Source: Oligoflexia bacterium
GTDB lineage: Bacteria; Bdellovibrionota_G; JALEGL01
Direction of reading: 5' to 3'
DNA: 64,000 bases
Assembly: GCA_035326705.1 (NCBI GenBank)
Contig: DAOLES010000005.1
Span: forward strand, 54,444-118,443
Shown here: in pieces, positions 38,357 through 54,404 of the stretch
Layout: each line of letters begins with the position of its first letter
Position numbering within the stretch: the first letter of the stretch is position 1
The notes under the pieces: generated by a model
Database searches by the model: none
The model's input: the letters and a program-made list of their open reading frames with translations, nothing else
What the model was told of the DNA's origin: nothing
Made by a program: the position numbers and the translations under genes

Positions 38357-38779
38357 ATGATCAAGTTTCTGCACAGCATGATTCGGGTGTCTAATCTAGA
38401 AGAATCTTTAGCATTTTATGTAGATGGCTTGGGATTAAAAGAAGTTCGTCGGAAAGAAGTACCGCAAGGTAAATTTACCTTAGTGTTCCTTAAAGCCCCT
38501 GACAGTGATGCAGAAATTGAACTCACCTACAATTGGGATAGCAATGAAGACTATGGCAACGCCAGAAATTTTGGCCATTTGGCTTTCTCAGTGGAAAACA
38601 TCTATGAAACCTGTGTATCCCTGCAAGAGAAAGGCATTGATATTTTGAGACCCCCCAGAGATGGTCACATGGCTTTCATCAAGTCACCGGACAATATATC
38701 TATTGAACTGTTACAAAAAGGCGATCCTCTACCACCCCAAGAACCCTGGGCCAGCATGGAAAACGTCGGTACATGGTAA
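38357..38779 (+). CDS. gloA: Lactoylglutathione lyase (glyoxalase I)
   Basis: [17 protein letters not shown]...LGL, ELTYNWD, GHLAFSV and [14 protein letters not shown] form the canonical GloA metal-binding pattern. Confidence 0.9.
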
Positions 38780-38993: not shown

Positions 38994-39662
38994 ATGAATA
39001 TATTTGCAGACAAAGCTAGTTTGGTTCTTAGACATCTTCTCCGATACCCAGAGAAGCCTTGGGTTATTTCTGAGATTGTGGAAAGTCTTGGGTTAAGCCA
39101 GGGTTTGGTTGCCAAAGTGATCCTGGAGCTAAGACAGCAAGGGTTTCTTAAAGGTGAAGCTCGGGGGCCTAAAGCTTCTTCCAAACTTCGTCACGCCGAA
39201 GAACTTCTTGATCAGTGGACCAAACAGTACCAATTTAACAAAAATCATACGATGGCTTTTTATAGTTCTGACAAAAATATTTTAAAAATCCTTAAAAATA
39301 CTTTGAGCCCATCAAAATCTGTTTCTTATGCCCTCACCTTACATACCGGTGCAAACTTCATGACCCACTATGTTCGTGATCAAAATGTGTATGCCTATTT
39401 ACCTGCAGAGAATTTTGATAATCAAGTTGAAGAGCTACGAAAACAGCTTAACCTCCTTGAACTTAAACAAGGCGGGAATGTTTTTTTCATTAAACCTTGG
39501 TATAGAAATTCTATCTTTTACAATGCACAAAAAATTAAAGGTTATTCAGTTGTGTCAAATTTACAGCTTTACTTAGACTTATTTAATTATCCCGACCGAG
39601 GAAATGAACAAGCTTTGCAACTTAAACGCGTCTTAAAAGAAAAAGGAGTGCCACTTGCCTGA
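38994..39662 (+). CDS. AbiEi-like winged-helix antitoxin/transcriptional regulator (type IV TA-like)
   Basis: N-terminal wHTH (ISEIVESLGLSQGLVAKVILELRQQGFL). The C-terminal SVVSNLQLYLDLFNYPDRGNEQA matches the AbiEi C-domain pattern. There is an 8 nt overlap with the downstream NTase gene. Confidence 0.6.
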   Translation: MNIFADKASLVLRHLLRYPEKPWVISEIVESLGLSQGLVAKVILELRQQGFLKGEARGPKASSKLRHAEELLDQWTKQYQFNKNHTMAFYSSDKNILKILKNTLSPSKSVSYALTLHTGANFMTHYVRDQNVYAYLPAENFDNQVEELRKQLNLLELKQGGNVFFIKPWYRNSIFYNAQKIKGYSVVSNLQLYLDLFNYPDRGNEQALQLKRVLKEKGVPLA

Positions 39663-40422
39663 TGCTTCTTTTCTTCTTTTGCTTCAAACCCTGAAAGATT
39701 TAAAACCATTCTTATCTCATTTGGTTTTGGTGGGTGGATGGGTACCCTATATTTATTCCCAATATGTTTGGAAGCTGAGTCATATACCTAGAGGTACAGC
39801 GGACATCGATTTTGGATTAAAAGACATTACCTACAAAGGAAAAAGTACCATTGCTCATAAACTGAAGCAAAAGCAATATGGAGAACATCACATAAATATG
39901 GGTAAACTACGTCCATATATTCCAGTTGCAAAACACGGGGATGAACGAGCCGATGTTGAATTCATTACATCTGCTAATCCCGAAACATTTAAAAGCTTGG
40001 TTGGCAAAGATATCAAAATCAACCAAATCGAAAATTTTGATCTCCTCCTTGAAAAGCCTTTACGAATGCCCATAGAGGGCTTGAATATCCAGATCCCTCG
40101 CCCGTCTATATTTATTTTCCATAAACTGCTTACATTTGTCGAGCGTCAAGGCCAGTTTAAACGAGAGAAAGACCTTTATTATGCTTATTTCATGTTGCTA
40201 TTTCATTCGGACAATGAACAAGTCAGCCAAGAAATTAAACAGCTCATTCTGAAAAAGCCGCAGGGAAAAACGGTAGAGAAGAATATTAAAAACTATTTTG
40301 ATGACGAATTTGACCAAGGGCCTCGTATTATTGGGCAACAAATCAAGGCTACTTCCATTCAAACCTTTGTTAAAGACGTCCAGCAAGATTCTTTTGAGCG
40401 CTTGCGAAAGCTTTTACCTTAA
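39655..40422 (+). CDS. Nucleotidyltransferase-fold protein (AbiEii / GSU2403-like toxin)
   Basis: LVLVGGWVPYIY...GTADIDFGL is the minimal NTase GG...DxD signature. The gene is translationally coupled to the wHTH gene. Confidence 0.6.
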   Translation: MPDASFLLLLQTLKDLKPFLSHLVLVGGWVPYIYSQYVWKLSHIPRGTADIDFGLKDITYKGKSTIAHKLKQKQYGEHHINMGKLRPYIPVAKHGDERADVEFITSANPETFKSLVGKDIKINQIENFDLLLEKPLRMPIEGLNIQIPRPSIFIFHKLLTFVERQGQFKREKDLYYAYFMLLFHSDNEQVSQEIKQLILKKPQGKTVEKNIKNYFDDEFDQGPRIIGQQIKATSIQTFVKDVQQDSFERLRKLLP

Positions 40423-40436
40423 TCTAAAAACTTATC

Positions 40437-40577
40437 TAATCATGGGACACACTGTGTATTCTTAATAAAAACGAGTTACCTAAATTAGTACACAGTGTGT
40501 CCCTGGATTGGCTCAATTCCCTAAAGTAACCGGGTACTTTTTTCCACTAACACAATTTATTCGGTAGCTGTCCCTGG
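40437..40577 (+). repeat. Boundary repeat, copy A (contains 15 bp perfect inverted repeat)
   Basis: TAATCATGGGACACACTGTGTATTCTTA recurs at 41988-42016, and CCCTAAAGTAACCGGGTACTTTTTTCCAC recurs at 42056-42084. The internal arms GGGACACACTGTGTA (40444-40458) and TACACAGTGTGTCCC (40489-40503) are perfectly complementary. Confidence 0.65.
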
Positions 40578-40579
40578 AA

Positions 40580-40630
40580 CTGCCAAGCCAAGAACCCTGG
40601 GCGAGCATGGAAAATTCCGGATCATGGTAA
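40580..40630 (+). pseudogene. Orphan diverged copy of the gloA 3' end
   Basis: The 51 nt ending in TGGTAA match 38729-38779 at 42 of 51 positions by my count. They read [16 protein letters not shown] versus [16 protein letters not shown] in gloA. Confidence 0.7.
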
Positions 40631-40662
40631 ACGTTTGATCATCGTTTTTTACAATGGAATTT

Positions 40663-40715
40663 GGTGCCAGGCGTATTTTTGCAATATACCACATTACAAA
40701 AATACGCCTGGCACC
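40663..40715. terminator. Strong hairpin (19 bp stem), likely bidirectional terminator
   Basis: GGTGCCAGGCGTATTTTTG / CAAAAATACGCCTGGCACC are perfect arms around a 15 nt loop. It sits between the gloA fragment and the stop of the minus-strand gene at 40720. Confidence 0.7.
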
Positions 40716-40719
40716 TAGA

Positions 40720-41859
40720 CTATTTAGAATTATTTGCTAGCCAATTATCGAGTCGCTGGCTTTCACTGGTCTTAAAGGTGTAATCTTCACCTCTCAAAAA
40801 ATCCCGCAAAAAGTCTTCGTCGCAAGCTTCTAAATCTCCGGTTGAAGCTGAAAAAACGTAGGTTTGATCCTTTAACTTAGTTTCACTAATAAGTTTAGCT
40901 AGAGGTTTAGTATGTAATGATCCTGTCCAAATAAGCAAAGATTTGTTTGGGTAGTCTAGAGCCAACTTTTGTATGTTTGAAAAAATAAAATGTTCCCTCA
41001 TCTCGAACTCCACTTTAATTGTCTCGTCGGATTTGCTACTCTTTTCATTGAACAAATTAACTGGATCCAAAAATTCTAACGTTGATGTAAAATTAAGCGC
41101 TTTTAAAGCCGGAATATTGTTACTCTCTAAGTTATACTTAGCCTCAGAAGCATTTTTAATGTGAGTTGTATAAAAAGAAGTTACCACCTTTTCATTCAAT
41201 GTTTTTAGTTCCTCGAAATAAGTAAGTGCATAGGCTTTAAATTCGTTTGCATCTGTGAGTTCATATATTTTTTCAATGAACTCCATATCCTCTGATCGCG
41301 GACTTTGTGGGCTACTTTTTAATCGCTCTATGAGGTCCGAAGAAATAACTCTAAATTCATCTGTTGAGTCATTATTTAAAATTTTTTCTACAATATTGAC
41401 GATTTCGGGATGGTTTGGACTTTTTGTAAGAAATGTTGATGCAAAGTCCCAAATACGAAATAAATCAATTCGGCTATAGAACGGGCTCGAAATTTGTTCT
41501 AAACCTAGATCAAGCTGGATTGACATATGCTTTAAATATAGAAGGTATTCAATTAAAATATGATCTTCGATATGACGAAGTGTTTCTGTTTCAGCCGAAA
41601 GGACTACGCCTTCAAACCCCAAAATAATTTCCGAATCCTTTTCATTCTTTGAGCTTGAGGAGTTATAGAAACTTTTTAGTTTATGATGCAGGTCTGGACA
41701 GCCTGCGGCAGAATGAATGCCCAAGCTTTGGTTTGTATGGCTGGTACCCCAAAGTACTATTTTTCTTTCAATTGTCTGAGCTTTGGTTTGGCTAAAAGGT
41801 TGCTCACATAACACAGCAATAAAAATATTACATAATACTATTAGCTTAAGTTGTTTCAT
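40720..41859 (-). CDS. Secreted protein, possibly Tiki/TraB/ChaN-like superfamily
   Basis: Signal peptide present. Spaced motifs LWGTSHT, EMREHFIFSN and WTGSLHT resemble the GxxH / RExxM / GxxH pattern of that superfamily. Confidence 0.35.
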   Translation of the reverse strand: MKQLKLIVLCNIFIAVLCEQPFSQTKAQTIERKIVLWGTSHTNQSLGIHSAAGCPDLHHKLKSFYNSSSSKNEKDSEIILGFEGVVLSAETETLRHIEDHILIEYLLYLKHMSIQLDLGLEQISSPFYSRIDLFRIWDFASTFLTKSPNHPEIVNIVEKILNNDSTDEFRVISSDLIERLKSSPQSPRSEDMEFIEKIYELTDANEFKAYALTYFEELKTLNEKVVTSFYTTHIKNASEAKYNLESNNIPALKALNFTSTLEFLDPVNLFNEKSSKSDETIKVEFEMREHFIFSNIQKLALDYPNKSLLIWTGSLHTKPLAKLISETKLKDQTYVFSASTGDLEACDEDFLRDFLRGEDYTFKTSESQRLDNWLANNSK

Positions 41860-41987
41860 TTTTCCCTTATTGTGATAATTTTATGCATGGGCTATCATGA
41901 ACACCATGGTGTGTCAACCACCTACTCAGGATATTTTGACGCACTATTAGCACTACTTAAGACTTTAAAACTCCACTCCTATGTTTC

Positions 41988-42084
41988 TTAATCATGGGAC
42001 ACACTATGTATTCTTATAAGAACTATTTACTTAAACCAGGAATACACCCTATACTCCCCAAAATAACCGAGTACTTTTTTCACA
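41988..42084 (+). repeat. Boundary repeat, copy B (degenerate; overlaps the 3' end of the ATPase gene)
   Basis: It matches copy A at both ends (see 40437-40577). Only the left arm of the inverted repeat is preserved. Confidence 0.55.
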
Positions 42085-43487
42085 AGAATTTTTTCATCTT
42101 CAGGAATTTCTTCCTTTTTAAAATCTCCATCAAATAGGAAAATACTATTTCTCACTTTTCCGCTAGACATCATTGCTGCAAAAGAAACCATACTAGATGT
42201 GCCGCCTGGATATATTTCAATAGATATCCTATCTCTCTTACTATCATTTAGTAACTTTTTTTGAACATAAGTTACTATATATTTTGATAAACTATCCTCC
42301 ACATATATGTACAGTTTTTCTTTATCTTGATAAGTGTACCCTAAATGAAAAGAGCTTTCAGACGCAACCGCAGAGTTAATAATTTGAATTTTATTATCTA
42401 AACCTGGGTTAGATATCAACAGCTTAATTGCACAGTCAGGAAGACCTGTTGCAAAATATGGTGAGTGGGTTGATAATATTACCTGTAATTTTTTTTCTGT
42501 AATTTTTTTTAAAATATATTTTTGCAATTTTATTTGTGCACCAATATGTAACGATGTTTCTGGTTCATCTAATAAAATCAAAGCTCTATTTTTTGCATTT
42601 TCGATTGCGTAAATTAACCGAATAACGCTTGCCTCACCACTACCTGCAAATGCCTCTGAATATTTTTCATCATTTAAATCTTTGTTGATATAAATTGAAA
42701 AACCACCCAAATTATAAAAATCATGTTCTATATAAGTTATATCGGAATATTTAATATCGAGGATATCAGAAGCCACCTGCAACTCTTCTATAGAAAAATT
42801 ATAATGTTCAGAAATTTTTTCTTTTCCATAGTAAGTTTTACTTTTAAGCTTCTTATCTAAAGCATTTTTTAATAACTTTGAACGTTTAAACAAATACCTT
42901 CTTTGCTTAGGGCGACTCCCACCTCCTTTTGAATCGAAATAAAATGCTCTGTCAAATGCACTAATTTCGGATCTAAAGTCTAAATATATTACTTTCTTTT
43001 TTATCGCATTCCACCTAGTTTTTGATCTTCCAGGGGGAATCGGATCACCTTCTTTTATTTCTTGTATAGGTTTCATACCGAAGTCAACCAATGGTCTAGT
43101 TGGCTCCCAATAACTGGAATCGATTAATTTATATTTTGGAGATTGTTTTTTTATCCTTGACTTTGCCACTTCCACTTCTTGACCAGCTTCATCACTAATA
43201 TATTTATACCAATATACAGATCTTTGTTTGATTAAATCTACATAAGACTCAAACCAATACTCTCCAGTTGAGTTACCCTCTGGACAACCATATAACGCGT
43301 GAAGAATTGAACTTTTATTTGTTCCATTTTTGCCAATTAATAAAGTTAAAGGAAATTCAAATATTAATTCCGATTCAGGAACTAAGTTTTTATAAGAACA
43401 AAATTTAATAAATGAAATATAGGGATTATACTCTTTGCCTTTTTGGAACCTATTTTTTATTTCTTCAATTTCATCAAAAGAATTCAT
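42027..43487 (-). CDS. ABC-type (AAA_15/21-like) ATPase with short C-terminal TOPRIM/DUF4435-like region (OLD / PARIS-like)
   Basis: Walker A LIGKNGTNKSSIL, signature-like AGSGEASVI, Walker B ALILLDEPETSLH and H-loop STHSP. These are followed by LYIYVEDSLSK and IFLFDGDF, which resemble the TOPRIM Glu and DxD. The last ~20 codons run into repeat copy B. Confidence 0.6.
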   Translation of the reverse strand: MNSFDEIEEIKNRFQKGKEYNPYISFIKFCSYKNLVPESELIFEFPLTLLIGKNGTNKSSILHALYGCPEGNSTGEYWFESYVDLIKQRSVYWYKYISDEAGQEVEVAKSRIKKQSPKYKLIDSSYWEPTRPLVDFGMKPIQEIKEGDPIPPGRSKTRWNAIKKKVIYLDFRSEISAFDRAFYFDSKGGGSRPKQRRYLFKRSKLLKNALDKKLKSKTYYGKEKISEHYNFSIEELQVASDILDIKYSDITYIEHDFYNLGGFSIYINKDLNDEKYSEAFAGSGEASVIRLIYAIENAKNRALILLDEPETSLHIGAQIKLQKYILKKITEKKLQVILSTHSPYFATGLPDCAIKLLISNPGLDNKIQIINSAVASESSFHLGYTYQDKEKLYIYVEDSLSKYIVTYVQKKLLNDSKRDRISIEIYPGGTSSMVSFAAMMSSGKVRNSIFLFDGDFKKEEIPEDEKILVKKVLGYFGEYRVYSWFK

Positions 43488-43496
43488 AAAAACCTA

Positions 43497-44516
43497 TTAA
43501 ATAATAAAACATTCTGAAATTCTTTCCGCCATCCTAGGAGGCACTGCATTTCCAACTTGCCTAGCACACGATGTAATACTTCCAGAAAAAATAAAATTAT
43601 CAGGAAAAGTTTGTAGCCTCGCAGCTTCGCGGACACTAATAGCCCTGTTTTGTTCTGGATGTCCAAATCGTCCATTAGAGTAGCTCGTACACTTAGTTGT
43701 TAAAGTAGCTGCTAATGCATCCCATTTCATTCTTCCATATACATCTGTATGACCAGAGTAATTTTTATGACAACCATTTTTTAAATGCTCTGGCCAATCT
43801 CTTCTATCTCCACCTTCTGGAGTTAATATAATTCTTTGAATATTTTCTTTTGATAATTTAGAAGATACATGATTTGGTATTTGTTCATGTGTTTCTCCCG
43901 CTTCAATTGGAGGCAAATCTTGAATGAACTCGCGTGTAGTATATTGCCTATGTTTATAATGATTCACTATTGTTTGAAGCGATCTGAGCCTATAAGGTTT
44001 TAAACACCCAATAAGAATAAATCTCTTTCTTTTTTGAGGAACACCTAACTCTGATGCATAAATATTACCTATTTCAAATTTATATCCAAGTTCTTCTAAC
44101 TGAAAAGTAAATTTTTTAAATATACCATTTGACCTACTTATATTCTGTATCCCTGGAACGTTTTCAAGAAAAATATACTCCGGCTTCCAAAAAGAAATAA
44201 ATCTCAGGAACTCCAGTAGAAGTGACTTTCTACTATCATTTTTTTGAGTATGTTTTTTTTGATTACTGAAAGGTTGGCAAGGCGCACAACCGCTAAAAAG
44301 CAGTGGCCCCGTTGACCTCTCAATAATAATTTTAAGCTCTTCTTCTTTAAAATTTCTAATATTTTCTTGAATAAATATAGCTTTGGGAAAATTATTTTTA
44401 TATGTTTGAGCTGAATCTCTATCAAAATCAAGAGCACCAATTATTTTAAAGCCGACATTTTCAAAGCCTAAACTTGTTCCCCCGCATCCACTAAAAAAAT
44501 CAACTACGTTCAACAT
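43497..44516 (-). CDS. dcm: DNA (cytosine-5)-methyltransferase
   Basis: Motif I VVDFFSGCGGTSLGF, motif IV GCAPCQPFS, motif VI ENV, motif VIII QKRKRFILIG, then RLQTFPDNF and GNAVPP. The start is placed at MLNVVDFF. The stop lies 9 nt before the ATPase start. Confidence 0.9.
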   Translation of the reverse strand: MLNVVDFFSGCGGTSLGFENVGFKIIGALDFDRDSAQTYKNNFPKAIFIQENIRNFKEEELKIIIERSTGPLLFSGCAPCQPFSNQKKHTQKNDSRKSLLLEFLRFISFWKPEYIFLENVPGIQNISRSNGIFKKFTFQLEELGYKFEIGNIYASELGVPQKRKRFILIGCLKPYRLRSLQTIVNHYKHRQYTTREFIQDLPPIEAGETHEQIPNHVSSKLSKENIQRIILTPEGGDRRDWPEHLKNGCHKNYSGHTDVYGRMKWDALAATLTTKCTSYSNGRFGHPEQNRAISVREAARLQTFPDNFIFSGSITSCARQVGNAVPPRMAERISECFII

Positions 44517-44620
44517 ATATTTAATAAATAATAGCCCATACCACATTTTATGTAAACGTTAGTTTTCCATCAACAGATCCTTTTTTGTTGCCGACCGCAA
44601 AGGGTGAAAAAATAAAAATT

Positions 44621-44689: not shown

Positions 44690-45027
44690 TTGGCATCGGC
44701 ATAAGTTACACTAGATCTTTGCTGCGCCTACGGCTTGCTCATCACAAGTGTAGCTTTAAACCAACGAAAGGCTTATTTTAATAACTAAAAACTTTTCTGA
44801 AATTTTGGTTTTGGTAGTTAGTAGTAGCTAAATTTGAACCCAGTCAAAACCGGGTGAATGGTTTGGGCTTGGCCCAAACCCAGCCCGCACATGCACATTC
44901 ATCCAGTTGGAAGCCCATGCATAAAGACCTTCGGCCATGTTGCCGTTAGGCAATATAAAAAAACAGAGAGCCCGAAGGGCGAATAACCGTAATTTGCATG
45001 ATTGATTTTATGGAAAATGATCGGAAT

Positions 45028-45072
45028 TGGTAGCGGGAGCCGGATTTGAACCGACGACCTTCGGGTTATGAG
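45028..45072 (-). repeat. attL-type direct repeat: exact copy of the 3' 45 nt of tRNA-fMet
   Basis: 45028-45072 is identical to 54328-54372 (TGGTAGCGGGAGCCGGATTTGAACCGACGACCTTCGGGTTATGAG). Identity stops in the anticodon loop. Confidence 0.9.
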
Positions 45073-45186: not shown

Positions 45187-45244
45187 AAAATGAACTGAAA
45201 AACATGAAAAGTAAACCCAATTAATAAGACATAAGTTGATAGAG

Positions 45245-48001
45245 ATGAGTATTTTAAGCTGGAACCAAATCAGAGCCAACGCTGCACAATTTTCAGATTC
45301 TTGGAAAGACGCGCACTATGAAAAAGGTGACACACAAACCTTTTATAATGAGTTTTTTGAGGTGTTCGGGCACCGCCGACGCAATGTTGCCTTATATGAA
45401 AAAAAAGTTGATATGGTGGGACGCTCTCATGGTTTCATTGATCTTTTTTGGCCAGGCATGCTGATTGTTGAGCAAAAATCCGCGGGTCGTAATTTAGACT
45501 CCGCTAGCACTCAAGTGGATGACTATATTCTTGCATTAAGTGAACGTGAAAGACCTCGATACCGCCTTATCAGTGATTTCCAAAACTTTGTTTTTACTGA
45601 CCTAGCGACGCGACAAATTTACACTTTCAAATTGGATGAACTTAAAAATAACATTAAACTTTTTGATTTTATTGCAGGTAGAAGGCAGCAAATTTACAAA
45701 GATCAAGATCCAGTAAACATTGATGCCTCTGATAAAATGAGCTCTCTACATAAAGTTTTAGAGGACTCTGGTTATGGTGGCACCGACCTTGAGCGATTGC
45801 TTGTTCGCATCATGTTTTGTTTATTTGCAGACGACACTGGCATATTTGAGCAAGACTCGTTGCTAAACTATATTCGTGACCGTACCCATACTGATGGCAG
45901 TGATCTTGGCAGCAAACTAATTGAACTATTTCAAGTTTTGGATACTCCAAAAGAAAAGCGTCAAAAAATGCTAGATGAAGACTTAGCTAGCTTTCCATAC
46001 GTAAACGGAAAACTATTTAATGGCTCTATCCGTACACCTTCATTTAACAACTCCATGCGAGATGTTCTATTAGACTGCTGTTACTTTAACTGGACAGAGG
46101 TTTCACCGGCATTATTTGGATCTTTATTTCAAACTGTCATCCTACCTGAAAAACAACGCCAAAGCGGCGCACATTATACAAGCGAGAAAAACATACTAAA
46201 AACCATTCAACCTTTATTTATGGAAGAACTGCAAGAGGAATTTAGTAGGTTAAAAAACCTAGGAGGGACACAACGTAGAAGTAAAATAGAACAATTTCAC
46301 ATCTCTTTAAGTAAATTGACGTTTTTAGACCCTGCGTGCGGATGTGGGAATTTTTTGATCTTAGCTTATCGCGAGTTACGTTTATTAGAGCTAGACATAT
46401 TAGACGAGCTATATCCGAGAGACAATAATGGCGATAGGCAAAATTTTTTAGATGTAGATCATTTATCTTTAATTAATGTAGATCAGTTTTATGGCATCGA
46501 AATAAGTGAATTTCCTGTTTATATTGCCCAAACTGCGATGTGGTTAATTGATCACCAAATGAATATGAAACTAGGTGACATGTTTGGGCAAGCCTTTGCC
46601 CGTTTACCACTGCAAAAAACTGCAAACATTTATCACGGCAATGCCCTCACAGTAGATTGGAATGAAGTAATTCCGGCATCAAAATGCTCTTACATTTTTG
46701 GTAATCCACCGTTTATTGGAAAAGCATATCGCAATAATGAACAACAAAGTGAGATGAAAAAAATTTTCAAAAGCACAAAAGGAACATTAGATTTAGATTA
46801 CGTAGTATGTTGGTTTTATATTGCAGCACATTATATTCAAAAAAAAAGTTGTCAAGTTGCTTTTGTTTCTACAAATTCAATTTGTCAAGGTGAGCAAGTA
46901 CCAATCTTTTGGGCTTTAATGATGGAAGAACTCAATATACACATTAATTTTGCTCATCGAACCTTTAAATGGATAATTGATGCTCAAAAAGCAAAAGGTA
47001 TGAATGTTGCTTCTGTTTATGTAGTTATTGTTGGATTTTCAACTATAAATAAAAGTAGAAAGAAAATTTTTGATTATGAAACAATTTCTTCTGACCCCCA
47101 CGAACTAAATGTAAAGAAAATTAACCCCTATTTATTAAATGCTGATACCTTTTTTATAAAAAACAGAAAAAACCATTTCCAAAAAAATTGCGTACCGCAG
47201 TTATCATTTGGGAGTATGCCTAATGATGGAGGTTTTTTAATTTTAAACGATAATGAAGCGCGTAGTTTTATACAAAAAGAACCTAAATCTAAAAACTTCA
47301 TTAAACCTTTTCTTGGTTCTAGAGAGTTTATTAATAATCTTCCCAGGTATTGTTTATGGTTAAAAAACTGTAGCCCATCAAACCTTAAGTCAATGCCTAT
47401 AGTAATTGAGAGAGTTGAGGCAGTACGTAAACAAAGATTAAAAAGCACTCGACCACCAACAAATAAATTAGCTCAATTCCCATGGTTATTTGGCGAGATA
47501 AGACAGCCAAATCAACGTTACATCGCTATTCCAGAAGTCTCATCTCAAAGCAGGGACTATATTCCAATTGGTTTTTTGGATAAAGACACTATAGCAAGTA
47601 ATAAACTTTATACTATCTCTAACGGCAACTTATATCATTTCGGGATAGTCACATCTAAAATGCATATGATTTGGATGAAAACTGTTGGCGGCCGATTAAA
47701 AAACGATTATCAGTATTCTAATGGTATTGTGTACAATAATTTTTCTTGGCCAGAAGCGACCGACATGCAAAAAGAGGCCATTGCTAAAAAAGCTCAAGCT
47801 ATCTTAGATGCTAGAAGCAATCACAAAGAGTCATCACTGGCTGATTTATATAATCCAAATCTCATGCCTGTTGACTTGAGAAAAGCTCACAATGCCTTAG
47901 ATAAAGAAGTGGACAAAACTTATCGCAAAGAACCATTTAACAGTGAACTTGAGCGCATACAGTTTCTATTTGAGCGTTATCAAAAACTGACTCAACTTTA
48001 A
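45245..48001 (+). CDS. MmeI-family Type IIL (IIG) restriction endonuclease / N6-adenine methyltransferase fusion
   Basis: N-terminal LSWNQIR...FYNEFFEVFG...FIDLFWPGMLIVEQKS (PD-ExK nuclease as in MmeI). Methylase motif I LDPACGCGNFL and motif IV GNPPFIG are present. The 918 aa size is close to my recollection of about 919 aa for MmeI. Confidence 0.8.
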   Translation: MSILSWNQIRANAAQFSDSWKDAHYEKGDTQTFYNEFFEVFGHRRRNVALYEKKVDMVGRSHGFIDLFWPGMLIVEQKSAGRNLDSASTQVDDYILALSERERPRYRLISDFQNFVFTDLATRQIYTFKLDELKNNIKLFDFIAGRRQQIYKDQDPVNIDASDKMSSLHKVLEDSGYGGTDLERLLVRIMFCLFADDTGIFEQDSLLNYIRDRTHTDGSDLGSKLIELFQVLDTPKEKRQKMLDEDLASFPYVNGKLFNGSIRTPSFNNSMRDVLLDCCYFNWTEVSPALFGSLFQTVILPEKQRQSGAHYTSEKNILKTIQPLFMEELQEEFSRLKNLGGTQRRSKIEQFHISLSKLTFLDPACGCGNFLILAYRELRLLELDILDELYPRDNNGDRQNFLDVDHLSLINVDQFYGIEISEFPVYIAQTAMWLIDHQMNMKLGDMFGQAFARLPLQKTANIYHGNALTVDWNEVIPASKCSYIFGNPPFIGKAYRNNEQQSEMKKIFKSTKGTLDLDYVVCWFYIAAHYIQKKSCQVAFVSTNSICQGEQVPIFWALMMEELNIHINFAHRTFKWIIDAQKAKGMNVASVYVVIVGFSTINKSRKKIFDYETISSDPHELNVKKINPYLLNADTFFIKNRKNHFQKNCVPQLSFGSMPNDGGFLILNDNEARSFIQKEPKSKNFIKPFLGSREFINNLPRYCLWLKNCSPSNLKSMPIVIERVEAVRKQRLKSTRPPTNKLAQFPWLFGEIRQPNQRYIAIPEVSSQSRDYIPIGFLDKDTIASNKLYTISNGNLYHFGIVTSKMHMIWMKTVGGRLKNDYQYSNGIVYNNFSWPEATDMQKEAIAKKAQAILDARSNHKESSLADLYNPNLMPVDLRKAHNALDKEVDKTYRKEPFNSELERIQFLFERYQKLTQL

Positions 48002-50235: not shown

Positions 50236-51192
50236 TCAGCTGTTTTTTTTTGGTGTTTGAAACTGCTCTAATAGTGCCAAAGTGTAGTCAATAAAACCAC
50301 AAATATGAAGCGCTTGCCTATCAGAAACTTGCAACAAATTATGATGGCTATCATTTCTAATCATAGCAAACAAACCAGATAGCAAATCACGAATACCCTC
50401 GTTTTGCTCGTCTTTTTTTATTGGTATTAATTTTGGTTTTTGGTTTGAAAAAACATTGTTTATTAGCTTTATACCGCTTAGATTAGAATTGCTTGGAAGC
50501 TTAGCCTTCTCCTTAATTCTATTTTCTAAAACGGTAGCGGATTCTCTTATTACAGTATCAAATAGATCTTCTCCATGAGTGTTTTTTTCTTCGATTCTGA
50601 GTTTAAAGATCCCCTCGCATCTTTTCTTTAACTCCTGATCGGTAATCTCCATCAGTCCCATGTATGGGGCAAAAGTTTGGTTTAAATCTTCAGTTATATT
50701 TTGCTTTTCAAGCGTAAATTTTTTCTGTGCTACGTCACTTGCTTTTGTTAAATCAATCAAATAGCTGGGAACTTTAAGACTATTTAAAAGCCCACTTTCT
50801 GCTAAATCACGTTTTGTTTGAATAACTTGATCAATCTTTTCTACAGTTGCTTTTAATAATTCAGGATTAGCTTGAATAAGCTCAATTTTTTTCCTTTCTA
50901 ACTCTCTTATTTGTGCATAAGCACCTGCTTTTATAATTCTCAATGACCAAAAGCTAATACCACGTGCAAAATCATCTTCATCTTGTTTTTTTTTATAATA
51001 CTCAATTATTCTTTCAACATGTTCATGTAACTCTGATTTATTTTCTATTTCAAAAGACTTTAATACCTCTTGATCATTATCCAGTCTTTGTTTAATTAAC
51101 TCCAGGCCCGGCAGAAATAAATCGATAATACTTTTTCTTAAAATAACGTGTGGAACTGTTTCATCATCATGAGGTTGTTTTTTATCTTTCAT
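50236..51192 (-). CDS. TIGR02391 (Hypoth_ymh) domain protein with unknown N-terminal helical domain
   Basis: The C-terminal DLFDTVIRESATVLENRIKEKA...GIKLINNVF...GLFAMIRNDSHHN...ALHICGFIDYTLALLE fits the TIGR02391 consensus (RNxxaH). Confidence 0.55.
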   Translation of the reverse strand: MKDKKQPHDDETVPHVILRKSIIDLFLPGLELIKQRLDNDQEVLKSFEIENKSELHEHVERIIEYYKKKQDEDDFARGISFWSLRIIKAGAYAQIRELERKKIELIQANPELLKATVEKIDQVIQTKRDLAESGLLNSLKVPSYLIDLTKASDVAQKKFTLEKQNITEDLNQTFAPYMGLMEITDQELKKRCEGIFKLRIEEKNTHGEDLFDTVIRESATVLENRIKEKAKLPSNSNLSGIKLINNVFSNQKPKLIPIKKDEQNEGIRDLLSGLFAMIRNDSHHNLLQVSDRQALHICGFIDYTLALLEQFQTPKKNS

Positions 51193-51212
51193 GCTATTTA
51201 AAGTACTATGAA

Positions 51213-51875
51213 TTAAAAACTTTTACCAAGATACTTAATTTTATTGTCTGCTCCAAGCTTATTTGCCTCATTTAAAGCTTTGTTTTTATCATTTTCATTT
51301 GGTGAAATAAACCAGCACCATCCCCCATAGACTATTCCAGTTATATAGCATGCAATTTTATCGCTTTTTGCAATCGGTGTTGTAAACTCAATGATTTCTG
51401 TCAAATCTTGTGAGTAGTAAATAGCATAGGCTTTATTTTCTGACGATTTAAAAGCTATTCTATACTTTACTAACTCTTTAGGGTTAACAAGCTTAGAAGT
51501 AATCAACTCATCATCTGAGTAAAAAGAAACCTCTGCTACTGTGTTCGGTGCTATGGGTTGATCTGGAGACTGCATTGCAGAATGAATTTTTTTAGTTGTA
51601 CCTGATACCAATCTATAAGATTGCCCTTCAAACTCTGCTACTGAGTCACTAAATGAAACATAAACTACATCACTTGATCTATTTTTAATCCAAAAATGAT
51701 TTAGCCTTGTTATATCTTGTGAGATTTCAATTGACTCAGGGATTATATTTTTTGGTCTAATGTCATTTTCTGGCCTATGGATTACTCCTTTCCATCTGTA
51801 AGTGCTACAACTTGTTGTAGTTAAAACTAATAAAACTATAACTAACTGGTTTTTTAAAATTTGTAATTTTTGCAT
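51213..51875 (-). CDS. Hypothetical lipoprotein (island cargo)
   Basis: Lipobox LTTTSC. It lies 20 nt upstream of the TIGR02391 gene on the same strand. Confidence 0.45.
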   Translation of the reverse strand: MQKLQILKNQLVIVLLVLTTTSCSTYRWKGVIHRPENDIRPKNIIPESIEISQDITRLNHFWIKNRSSDVVYVSFSDSVAEFEGQSYRLVSGTTKKIHSAMQSPDQPIAPNTVAEVSFYSDDELITSKLVNPKELVKYRIAFKSSENKAYAIYYSQDLTEIIEFTTPIAKSDKIACYITGIVYGGWCWFISPNENDKNKALNEANKLGADNKIKYLGKSF

Positions 51876-51967
51876 AAAAGAGCTCCTAAACTAATAAACG
51901 ACCCTTCTTTAATTATACCTTCTTATAGGAAGAGAATCAAAACATCTTATCCCTATTATTGAAAATA

Positions 51968-52198
51968 ATGAAAAAGGCAGAATTTTTAAAAAAACTGGGA
52001 AAGCACATAGCAAAAATAAGAAAATCAAAAGGTTACAGTCAGGATAGGTTATACTTAGAAGCTGGGTTTTCACGAGGAACTGTCTCAAAAATTGAAAATG
52101 GACTAGTAAACCCTCAGATTTTTACATTGTATAAAATTGCAAAGACTATTAACGTTTCTGTTTCAACTTTGATAAGTTTCTCTGAAAAAGACTTATAG
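51968..52198 (+). CDS. XRE-family helix-turn-helix transcriptional regulator
   Basis: IRKSKGYSQDRLYLEAGFSRGTVSKIENGLVNPQIFTLYKIAKTINVSVSTL is a canonical HTH_3. It is divergent from the lipoprotein/TIGR02391 operon. Confidence 0.8.
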   Translation: MKKAEFLKKLGKHIAKIRKSKGYSQDRLYLEAGFSRGTVSKIENGLVNPQIFTLYKIAKTINVSVSTLISFSEKDL

Positions 52199-52208
52199 TA
52201 GCTAATAA

Positions 52209-52622
52209 CTATTTTTCATTATTTGTTTTACTAATCCATTGCGTATGCTCTCTCGAAACAAGCATTTCAACTCTCTCAGCAAGTTGTTTTTGTGTATCAC
52301 TATCTCCGTACGGACCAGCTTTTGCTAAAAATAGATACTTTTCTTTTCTAAGAGCTTCACAAGTGGCACGATACATTATCCAATTATGTTGATCTTGATT
52401 GAGGGATGTCCAAGCTTCCAAGAAAGAAATTAAAACTCCTAATACTCCAATAACTAAAAGATCAGCTTTTATACCAGCTAACAATGGAATTAAACTCGAA
52501 AAAATTATGATAAAAACTTTAGACAGCTTAAATCGTTTTTGATGAGCTTGGCTTTTTTTATCATACCATTCAATTTGCTCCTCTAACCTGCACAGTGTTA
52601 CATTTTCTGAATGATCTTTCAT
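52209..52622 (-). CDS. DUF4231 / SLATT-family two-TM protein
   Basis: LEEQIEWYDKKSQAHQKRFK, then two TM helices (VFIIIFSSLIPLLAGI and LVIGVLGVLISFLEAW), then WIMYRATCEALRKEKYLF...VSREHTQW. This is the DUF4231 layout. Confidence 0.7.
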   Translation of the reverse strand: MKDHSENVTLCRLEEQIEWYDKKSQAHQKRFKLSKVFIIIFSSLIPLLAGIKADLLVIGVLGVLISFLEAWTSLNQDQHNWIMYRATCEALRKEKYLFLAKAGPYGDSDTQKQLAERVEMLVSREHTQWISKTNNEK

Positions 52623-52625
52623 TTT

Positions 52626-53036
52626 TTAACCTATTAACTTTTCTATACTCCATGGGTCCCAAGAATAAAACTTACTATTCTTAGGAAACTTAGTAGGAAG
52701 TTTAGCAGATTCTACTCCTTTTAGCGCCATTCCAATTACCTTCTTTTCTAATTCAATAGCTTTTTCAATCTCCCAGTTTACCCACTGACTCTTGTACGTA
52801 TCATTACCTATTAGTACAATAACAGCAGAAGACCTTTTAATTTTATCTATGATTTTTATTTTTAAGTATATTGAGTCCGTACTATTAATTGGTTTTTTTA
52901 TAGATTCATCATAAAACTCTAAGGGAAATTTCGGACTTTTTGCAAGTAACCTTAAACCATTTACTTGACTTTCATCTTCATACATAAAACTCAAAAAAAC
53001 CCTTTTTTTCATTGCTAACCTAATTTTATCAAACAA
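52626..53036 (-). CDS. TIR-like domain protein (DUF1863 / ThsB-like)
   Basis: KRVFLSFMYEDESQ...SAVIVLIGNDTYKSQWVNWEIEKAIELEKKVIGMAL matches the MTH538/ThsB-type TIR-like pattern. It lies 28 nt after the integrase stop and 3 nt before the SLATT start. Confidence 0.7.
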   Translation of the reverse strand: MFDKIRLAMKKRVFLSFMYEDESQVNGLRLLAKSPKFPLEFYDESIKKPINSTDSIYLKIKIIDKIKRSSAVIVLIGNDTYKSQWVNWEIEKAIELEKKVIGMALKGVESAKLPTKFPKNSKFYSWDPWSIEKLIG

Positions 53037-53064
53037 AAGTACTTATAGCCCGTTAAAATTATGT

Positions 53065-54156
53065 TTATTTCTTATTTAAACTTATAACGGGATTTTTACT
53101 CTTATGTATACTTTTTCCAAACCTATCGTAATCTCCATCAAATGCTTTTACATCCAAATGAGCGTATCTTTCCGTCATTTTAACAGTCGAATGACCTAAA
53201 AGATCCTTTAATTTGTATATGTCACCCCCCTTCATCATCCAATGACTTGCGAAAGTATGTCTTAAATCATGAAATCTAATTCTTTCTAAACCAGCTCTTC
53301 TTATGCAACGTTGAAAAGTTTCTTGAAAAATACGTGATGACTCAATTAACATGTTTCCATAGGCGTTTGGGAATACTAAAGGAAGAGGATTTTGTAGTTT
53401 CCACTCTTTTAAAATGGACTGTAAGCAGTTCAAAATAAGTACATGTCTTGTTTTACCTGATTTAGTTGTTGTACTATAACTCTTTGATATATGGATTTTT
53501 GGATTTATCCCTATTAATTCAACATCTTGCCACTTTAATGCAGCAAGCTCACCTGCTCTCATTCCCGTATATACAGCTGTTGCATAAAGAACATATGGTA
53601 CAGGAGTATTTTCTTGCTTAGCAGATCGTAAGAGCCTATCAATTTCGTTTTGTGTTTTTAAATACAAGAATGACTTCTGAGCTATTTTAAGTTTCTTAAT
53701 TTTAGGCTTGTCATCAATCCACTTTAAGTCAATGGCCATGTTCAGCATTGCAATCAGAAGTGTTAAATGGTTGTTTACTGTTTTTGCGCTTGCCTTATTT
53801 AAAGTAATGCTTGTAAACCTATCTACTATGGTTAACGTTATTTGAGAAAGTGTTAATGTTCCAAAAAAAGGCATAAGATGTGCATTAAGGATACTTTGGT
53901 CATCTTTTGGATTTTTCTTTTTAGACGCTCTATGCATCATCCAATAATCGGCCAATTCCACAAAAGTACGTTCCATTTTTGGTCGAACATACAAGCCAGC
54001 TTTGATTTGGTCCACTTCAAGCTGATTCTTAAGTAATGCTTTGCGTGCGGTATCATAATTTTTAAAGGATTGCCCTCGCCTTTTACCATTTTCATCCACC
54101 CAGCGGATGTGCCACTTATTATTTCGTTTAATTGGTTTTGCCATGTCTTGCCTCAC
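53065..54156 (-). CDS. int: Tyrosine-type site-specific integrase
   Basis: N-terminal SAM-like arm/core binding region. The catalytic region has TGMRAGEL (Arg) and RFHDLRHTFASHWMMKGGDIYKLKDLLGHSTVKMTERYAHL (HxxR...Y). Confidence 0.9.
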   Translation of the reverse strand: MRQDMAKPIKRNNKWHIRWVDENGKRRGQSFKNYDTARKALLKNQLEVDQIKAGLYVRPKMERTFVELADYWMMHRASKKKNPKDDQSILNAHLMPFFGTLTLSQITLTIVDRFTSITLNKASAKTVNNHLTLLIAMLNMAIDLKWIDDKPKIKKLKIAQKSFLYLKTQNEIDRLLRSAKQENTPVPYVLYATAVYTGMRAGELAALKWQDVELIGINPKIHISKSYSTTTKSGKTRHVLILNCLQSILKEWKLQNPLPLVFPNAYGNMLIESSRIFQETFQRCIRRAGLERIRFHDLRHTFASHWMMKGGDIYKLKDLLGHSTVKMTERYAHLDVKAFDGDYDRFGKSIHKSKNPVISLNKK

Positions 54157-54259: not shown

Positions 54260-54327
54260 GCATTTATAGTGCTATGAACGCCGAAAGGTATTTTTGCTAC
54301 AACTGTTTGAATTAATTATTAGAAATT

Positions 54328-54404
<77 letters not shown>

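Follow-up and report, generated by a model that had tools for sequence, protein, structure and literature searches.

In a 64,000-nt stretch of the Oligoflexia bacterium contig DAOLES010000005.1 (hereafter the window, in whose numbering all positions are given), a short gene coding a TIR-domain protein is followed by a gene coding a small SLATT membrane protein, beside a tyrosine integrase gene. The question raised by this locus is whether the two genes form an anti-phage system, and if so, whether it is one that has already been described. We consider it likely that these two genes, thsB and thsH, constitute an anti-phage system of the type VII Thoeris kind, carried as cargo of a 9.3 kb tRNA-Met island alongside a type IIG restriction-modification (R-M) enzyme. 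A preliminary description of this DNA had regarded the pair as undescribed and uncharacterised. This view has been overtaken, as operons of TIR and SLATT genes were shown to be anti-phage (bioRxiv 10.1101/2024.12.27.630466; bioRxiv 10.64898/2025.12.03.692087). The window pair, with both of its genes intact, is best read as a new, divergent example of a described system. The genes concerned are the following.

52209..52622, minus strand: thsH, candidate effector of the SLATT_1/DUF4231 family, 137 aa, with its ATG 3 nt past the TAA of the TIR gene
52626..53012, minus strand: thsB, ThsB-type TIR and predicted signal synthase, 128 aa, ATG start
53065..54156, minus strand: tyrosine integrase (Phage_integrase, 6.4e-26), given as context and placed outside the defence system

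The TIR and SLATT genes and their products

The three open reading frames (ORFs) lie on the minus strand at the edge of a tRNA island as first described, which was borne out by the ORF list, the tRNA-Met and a 46-nt repeat. The SLATT gene likewise has the length and the position behind the TIR stop codon that had been noticed, and the two genes stand on one strand with a 3-nt intergenic gap, an operon-like adjacency. The extent of the TIR gene was corrected. It had been given as 136 aa starting 28 nt from the integrase stop, which corresponds to the longest ORF (52626-53036, TTG start). The gene callers place the start at the ATG at 53012, as do all of the 35 homologues that were aligned, and the protein then begins with MKKRVF; the gene therefore most likely codes 128 aa and lies 52 nt from the integrase stop. 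An AGG is found about 7 nt upstream of this ATG.

Searches with hidden Markov models supported the assignment of the first protein as a TIR of the DUF1863/ThsB type, with matches to Pfam ThsB_TIR (PF08937, 4.5e-22) and TIR_2 (4.9e-5). The protein was a minimal single domain without sensor fusion, and its best database homologues were at most 63% identical to it. When the family profile was compared with the PDB, the best matches were 8fz9 (B. cereus BcTir, 5.9e-22), 6lhy (ThsB, 2.5e-14) and 9b7d (about 1e-14). An AlphaFold 2 model with a predicted local distance difference test score (pLDDT) of 89 gave a similar result in Foldseek, in which 8fz9 came first (TM-score 0.77), then the ThsB structures 9b7d, 6lhy and 8wcf. 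With the corrected start, the glutamate in WVNWEIE that had been pointed out as conserved is residue E81 (codon 52772-52770). It was invariant in the 35 homologues and aligned with the glutamate of WVRYE in B. cereus ThsB (PDB 6lhy), the catalytic residue E85.

The assignment of the second protein as a DUF4231/SLATT protein with two transmembrane (TM) segments was also supported by the profile searches, with matches to Pfam DUF4231 (PF14015, 2.7e-21) and SLATT_1 (PF18181, 4e-13) and to NCBIfam SLATT_1 (4.6e-35). Hydropathy indicated a tight hairpin of two TM segments, at residues of about 36-51 and 55-71, joined by a loop of three residues. This hairpin is placed between an N-terminal cytoplasmic helix and a C-terminal helical region, and the nearly invariant charged and aromatic residues of the family were located mostly in these cytoplasmic N- and C-terminal helices, the C-terminal region being the richest. 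Among the conserved cytoplasmic residues are R12, W19, Y20, K35, W81, R85, K95 and R117. The AlphaFold 2 model was all-helical with a pLDDT of 93.9. In the PDB, nothing significant was found by sequence profile, and the best match by fold had an E of 0.6. The best database homologues of this protein were at most 57% identical to it.

The two proteins behaved differently in PADLOC 2.0.0. The TIR was matched by ThsB models, down to 9e-18, while neither the window SLATT nor 35 members of its family were matched by any model. The best PADLOC match of the TIR was PDC-M50B (7e-18). This match was considered as a link to a model for the SLATT partner and was set aside; it is not tied to the partner, PADLOC having given no SLATT matches. 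The locus would be missed by PADLOC 2.0.0, which lacks a model for SLATT proteins of this family.

Comparison with type VII Thoeris

Type VII Thoeris is composed of ThsB and a SLATT effector, ThsH (Yirmiya et al., bioRxiv 10.64898/2025.12.03.692087, December 2025). Systems from an Alteromonadales scaffold, Pseudohongiella nitratireducens and Bacillus licheniformis SCCB 37 protected against phage, and their TIRs made canonical cyclic ADP-ribose (cADPR) upon infection only (bioRxiv 10.64898/2025.12.03.692087). According to the same preprint, five TIRs produced cADPR (three of type VII and two of type VIII), exogenous cADPR, but not 2'cADPR or 3'cADPR, halted the growth of cells bearing type VII, and types VII and VIII together were found in about 2% of the genomes analysed. 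An AlphaFold 3 model of the ThsH oligomer contained positively charged pockets between protomers (bioRxiv 10.64898/2025.12.03.692087), which addresses the point, made in the preliminary description, that so small a SLATT protein leaves no space for a dedicated sensor domain.

We compared the window TIR with 28 TIR sequences, comprising the published or tested TIRs of Table S1 of that preprint (bioRxiv 10.64898/2025.12.03.692087), one extra type VIII row and PDB 8fz9. Its five best BLASTP matches among them were all of type VII or type VIII, the cADPR-signalling types. The best single match among the tested TIRs was a type VIII TIR (47% over 78 aa), and the identity to the validated ThsB of B. 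licheniformis SCCB 37 was 37% (E 1e-17). A search of the protein database with the sequence of this validated ThsB also gave a protein, P0156, that is 98% identical to this validated ThsB and 37% identical to the window TIR (E 6e-19). On the contig of P0156, a 150-aa SLATT_1/DUF4231 gene overlaps the TIR start, and the window SLATT showed 42% identity over 129 residues to its product (E 2e-34). All features of type VII Thoeris that can be checked in a sequence were found at the window locus, homology of both its TIR and its SLATT to the validated B. licheniformis system among them.

In both the type VII systems and the window, a short TIR and a two-TM SLATT_1/DUF4231 protein of about 140-150 aa are coded by a two-gene operon, a putative one in the case of the window. 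The window pair also resembles type VII Thoeris in keeping the catalytic glutamate and in lying in a defence-island or mobile-element context. The gene order is TIR before SLATT in the window, whereas SLATT precedes TIR in the Bacillus type VII system and in 18 of the viral-contig loci described below. The window further differs from the tested type VII systems in its divergent sequences and its tRNA-Met integrative island. When the scaffold identifiers that we had fetched were compared with the supplementary tables of the preprint, two prefix matches were seen among the rows listed, and both were other genes (one CBASS, one type VIII).

According to the type VII Thoeris reading, the 128-aa ThsB would detect phage infection, and its E81 would convert nicotinamide adenine dinucleotide (NAD+) to a cyclic ADP-ribose signal, most likely canonical N1-cADPR judging from homology. 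The signal would bind the 137-aa ThsH at its cytoplasmic helices, probably in pockets between protomers. ThsH would oligomerise via its two-TM hairpin and breach the inner membrane, and the cell would be killed or arrested before the release of progeny (abortive infection). The earlier proposal that a TIR signal gates a small membrane effector is well supported by the evidence from domains, homology, structure models and gene neighbourhoods. Our analysis shows the genes with their domains, the conserved catalytic glutamate, the membrane topology, the relation of both proteins by homology to a validated system, their close linkage and the mobile, defence-island context; the trigger of ThsB, the nature of its signal, the assembly of ThsH into oligomers and the protection of the native host are what we infer.

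The same architecture might work with another chemistry, in which canonical cADPR is replaced, as the product of this divergent ThsB clade, by a different molecule (for example 2'cADPR, 3'cADPR, histidine-ADP-ribose (His-ADPR) or another NAD derivative) to which ThsH is tuned. The identity of just 37% to a validated type VII ThsB would fit such a divergence, as would the distribution of TIRs classed as type VII over at least four sequence clusters in Table S1 and the pairing of SLATT-family homologues with many TIR architectures. The five closest tested TIRs, however, all belong to the two types for which cADPR was reported, and the window SLATT is clearly homologous to the proxy ThsH that stands beside a 98% copy of the ThsB of the cADPR-responsive B. 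licheniformis system. We regard a different signal as rather unlikely.

Several points weigh against the assignment to type VII Thoeris. The specificity of its signal could differ from that of the validated systems, since the TIR and the SLATT share only 37% and 42% identity, respectively, with their validated counterparts. The ThsH used in the comparison was taken from a near-identical proxy contig, not from the published clone. When six type VII candidates were tested in a heterologous host, three of them failed to protect it (bioRxiv 10.64898/2025.12.03.692087). The absence of PADLOC matches for the SLATT partner counts on the same side, as does a simple promoter and terminator scan, in which no convincing sigma-70-like promoter or terminator was found around the TIR-SLATT pair. 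Transcription may read through from the integrase gene into the pair.

Conservation of the pair and comparison with other systems

The neighbourhoods of related genes indicated that the pair is co-conserved. A TIR-based survey gave 19 loci from species-representative (reference) genomes, which span Acidobacteriota, Planctomycetota, Nitrospirota, Actinomycetota, Alpha- and Gammaproteobacteria (including a Legionellaceae metagenome-assembled genome) and others. A SLATT gene stood directly downstream of the TIR relative on the same strand in 15 of them. Among the other four, one was cut by a contig end, two had fragmented TIR genes, and in one a second TIR replaced SLATT. The pair was also found in 22 of 23 viral-contig loci from IMG/VR (L104-L126), four in the TIR-to-SLATT order of the window and 18 in the order SLATT to TIR. 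This presence in 22 of the 23 viral or prophage contigs recovered suggests that type VII Thoeris is a common cargo of phages and prophages. In other genomes, the genes next to the pair included type I R-M, Hma and helicases of the DISARM/BREX type (DrmD/BrxH-like).

This linkage bears on whether a signal passes between the two proteins at all. Many bacterial TIR domains deplete NAD+ as effectors, in CBASS, Pycsar, SPARTA and AVAST, and the window TIR could likewise be an NAD+-depleting NADase effector in itself, with the SLATT protein independent or accessory. Functional coupling of the two proteins is argued for by their linkage, because it is tight across phyla and occurs in both gene orders. 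Exogenous cADPR alone was toxic in validated type VII systems (bioRxiv 10.64898/2025.12.03.692087), and the window TIR, as a minimal single domain, has no sensor fusion. In view of these points, an uncoupled NADase appears very improbable.

The linkage was looser in the reverse direction. Among 64 metagenomic loci that were chosen by their SLATT gene and had room upstream, a TIR of the window family was adjacent in about 10, and about one fifth of the SLATT homologues had a detectable TIR neighbour. In a Pfam search over 94 ORFs neighbouring SLATT genes, TIR_2 was found in 15, ThsB_TIR in seven and TIR in six, sets that may overlap. The SLATT family as an obligate partner of the TIR family was rejected, since the TIR is nearly always found with SLATT but the reverse fails. 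The SLATT effector is far more promiscuous than the window TIR family.

SLATT_1/DUF4231 proteins about 50% identical to that of the window were seen with diverse TIR partners at loci L021-L101, which are metagenome and Colwellia contigs. The TIR architectures included TIR-FGE-sulfatase, TIR-TonB_C, TIR-beta-helix and a 1,244-aa TIR-WD40 protein, and an nSTAND1-WD40 protein was a further partner. Some SLATT genes had no visible partner and stood beside housekeeping genes (for instance aconitase, gyrB or an AMP-binding enzyme).

The idea of another signal has a broader form, in which DUF4231/SLATT_1 would be a general receptor-effector whose inter-protomer pocket has been retuned repeatedly, and the divergent ThsB clade of the window would signal with a molecule other than canonical cADPR. 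We give this a low probability. If it were true, the SLATT genes beside TIR-FGE-sulfatase, TIR-TonB_C, TIR-beta-helix, TIR-WD40 or nSTAND genes, or apparently alone, would mark a broader, uncharted family of TIR-to-SLATT signalling, and some of these TIR-to-SLATT circuits would possibly work in trans.

Other known systems share parts of the architecture seen in the window. Shaseng consists of a SLATT gene and two TIR genes (SasA/SasB); it protects E. coli against T4 and T6 and needs the TIR active site of SasA (bioRxiv 10.1101/2024.12.27.630466, December 2024). It is repressed by a CRISPR-Cas crlRNA, and its de-repression leads to autoimmunity (bioRxiv 10.1101/2024.12.27.630466). Shaseng and the window both combine TIR with a SLATT transmembrane effector, but Shaseng has two TIR genes under crlRNA control, and a single TIR gene is present in the window. 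The scanned island ORFs gave no sign of an association with CRISPR, and the region beyond the island was not examined for it. Loci with two TIR relatives and one SLATT relative, arranged as TIR-SLATT-TIR or TIR-TIR-SLATT in a Shaseng-like layout, were observed elsewhere (L005, L024, L058, L060 and L104), and L005, L024 and L104 are two-TIR variants of the window family.

The TIR of type VIII Thoeris, as in BcTir-BcTpr (8fz9), is the closest to that of the window in sequence and in structure, and type VIII signals by cADPR like type VII (bioRxiv 10.64898/2025.12.03.692087). Its effector is, however, a soluble CMP-hydrolase/TPR protein, whereas that of the window is a SLATT membrane protein, and no gene for a CMP-hydrolase-TPR effector was found among the island ORFs in the Pfam and PADLOC scans. 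Type II Thoeris (ThsB with a Macro-TM protein, His-ADPR) also couples a TIR signal to a membrane-spanning effector. This effector senses the signal with its Macro domain, whereas the window SLATT matched only DUF4231/SLATT models. For type I Thoeris, whose ThsA is a SIR2-SLOG protein, no SIR2 or SLOG match was found among the island proteins scanned. The statement that the pair has neither SIR2-SLOG nor Macro domains was confirmed by the Pfam, PADLOC and NCBIfam scans of the island proteins. Type VII was unaffected by the Tad sponges tested (bioRxiv 10.64898/2025.12.03.692087).

The SLATT effectors of CBASS and of the reverse transcriptase (RT) or retron type, in the definition of Burroughs, Aravind and colleagues, belong to the same two-TM superfamily and are predicted to be membrane-breaching oligomers. 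The partner of the window SLATT is a TIR, unlike in these systems. Pfam and PADLOC scans of the island ORFs found none of the partners of CBASS, Pycsar or RT systems (CD-NTase/SMODS, cyclase, reverse transcriptase).

The tRNA-Met island and its surroundings

The island, which is delimited by a perfect pair of 46-nt direct repeats, has the following landmarks besides the three genes given above.

54328..54404, minus strand: tRNA-Met (CAT), the integration target, called by ARAGORN
54327..54372, no strand: attachment (att) repeat copy over the 3' part of the tRNA-Met, perfect 46-nt direct repeat D4
45027..45072, no strand: distal att copy at the far island boundary, perfect 46-nt direct repeat D4, where ARAGORN calls no tRNA
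45236..48001, plus strand: type IIG restriction-modification enzyme (PADLOC REase_MTase_IIG, E = 0, 1180 bits), the second defence cargo of the island

The other island genes, as found in the Pfam, PADLOC and NCBIfam scans, code an AlpA-like helix-turn-helix (HTH) protein, a Hypoth_Ymh protein, a 220-aa protein and an XRE-type HTH protein. Ordinary chromosomal genes flank the island (MurJ, MutL, AsnS, IspG and AmpG). Two of the cargo genes, in 50236-51875, have no role assigned by family. The product of one has 318 aa, a Hypoth_Ymh domain at its C-terminus (Pfam 7.5e-14) and a weak PADLOC match to PD-Lambda-3_B (1.3e-3). The other codes the 220-aa protein, whose N-terminus resembles a lipoprotein signal when judged by eye and which had no family match in Pfam, NCBIfam or PADLOC. 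The XRE-family HTH gene (51959-52198; HTH_3, 1.8e-14) converges on the SLATT gene with 10 nt between the stops. Because a homologue was present in only one of the related loci fetched (L031), the XRE-HTH protein probably serves the island as a regulator and does not belong to Thoeris.

The integrase, the XRE-HTH, the 220-aa protein and the Hypoth_Ymh protein were each considered as parts of the system and ruled out, as none was co-conserved with the pair. The linkage to an integrase, which had been part of the preliminary description, is incidental in this respect. This result also bears on the idea that the pair is a toxin-antitoxin-like module for addiction to, or stabilisation of, the island, in which defence is secondary or absent. 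In its favour, the integrase is the direct neighbour of the pair at the edge of the island, membrane proteins of the SLATT kind may be toxic, and Shaseng caused autoimmunity on de-repression (bioRxiv 10.1101/2024.12.27.630466). Against it, besides the lack of co-conservation, stand the many non-island contexts in which homologous pairs occur beside R-M or other defence genes, the role of the validated relatives in phage defence and the absence of an evident antitoxin-like logic. We attach very little weight to an addiction module, and the three alternatives (another signal, an addiction module and a free-standing NADase) are each unlikely when taken individually.

A second defence-like cluster was observed at 38994-44546, just beyond the distal att copy of the island. 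Its members are a gene resembling the AbiEi_2 antitoxin (38994-39662; Pfam 6e-10), a 255-aa ORF overlapping it (39655-40422; possibly AbiEii), an AAA_15/AAA_21 ATPase gene (42027-43487) and a Dcm C5-methyltransferase gene (43497-44546; TIGR00675, 1.8e-51). Imperfect direct repeats are present in the same area, at 38729/40580 (51 nt, 82%) and at 40437/41989 (28 nt, 96%). The tRNA-Met may mark a hotspot of defence genes.

Reading the sequence alone had sufficed to recover the logic of an actual defence system, one already named and experimentally supported. Annotation of 2023 vintage (PADLOC 2.0.0) overlooks the SLATT partner. The question that follows concerns the family and not this locus, namely how a SLATT protein of 137 aa both senses cADPR and breaches the membrane, there being no similar solved structure. 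As a type VII Thoeris, the locus would add a divergent and compact system (128 and 137 aa) that shares its small tRNA-Met island with a type IIG R-M enzyme, and its location on this island illustrates the movement of TIR-SLATT pairs as island or prophage cargo.

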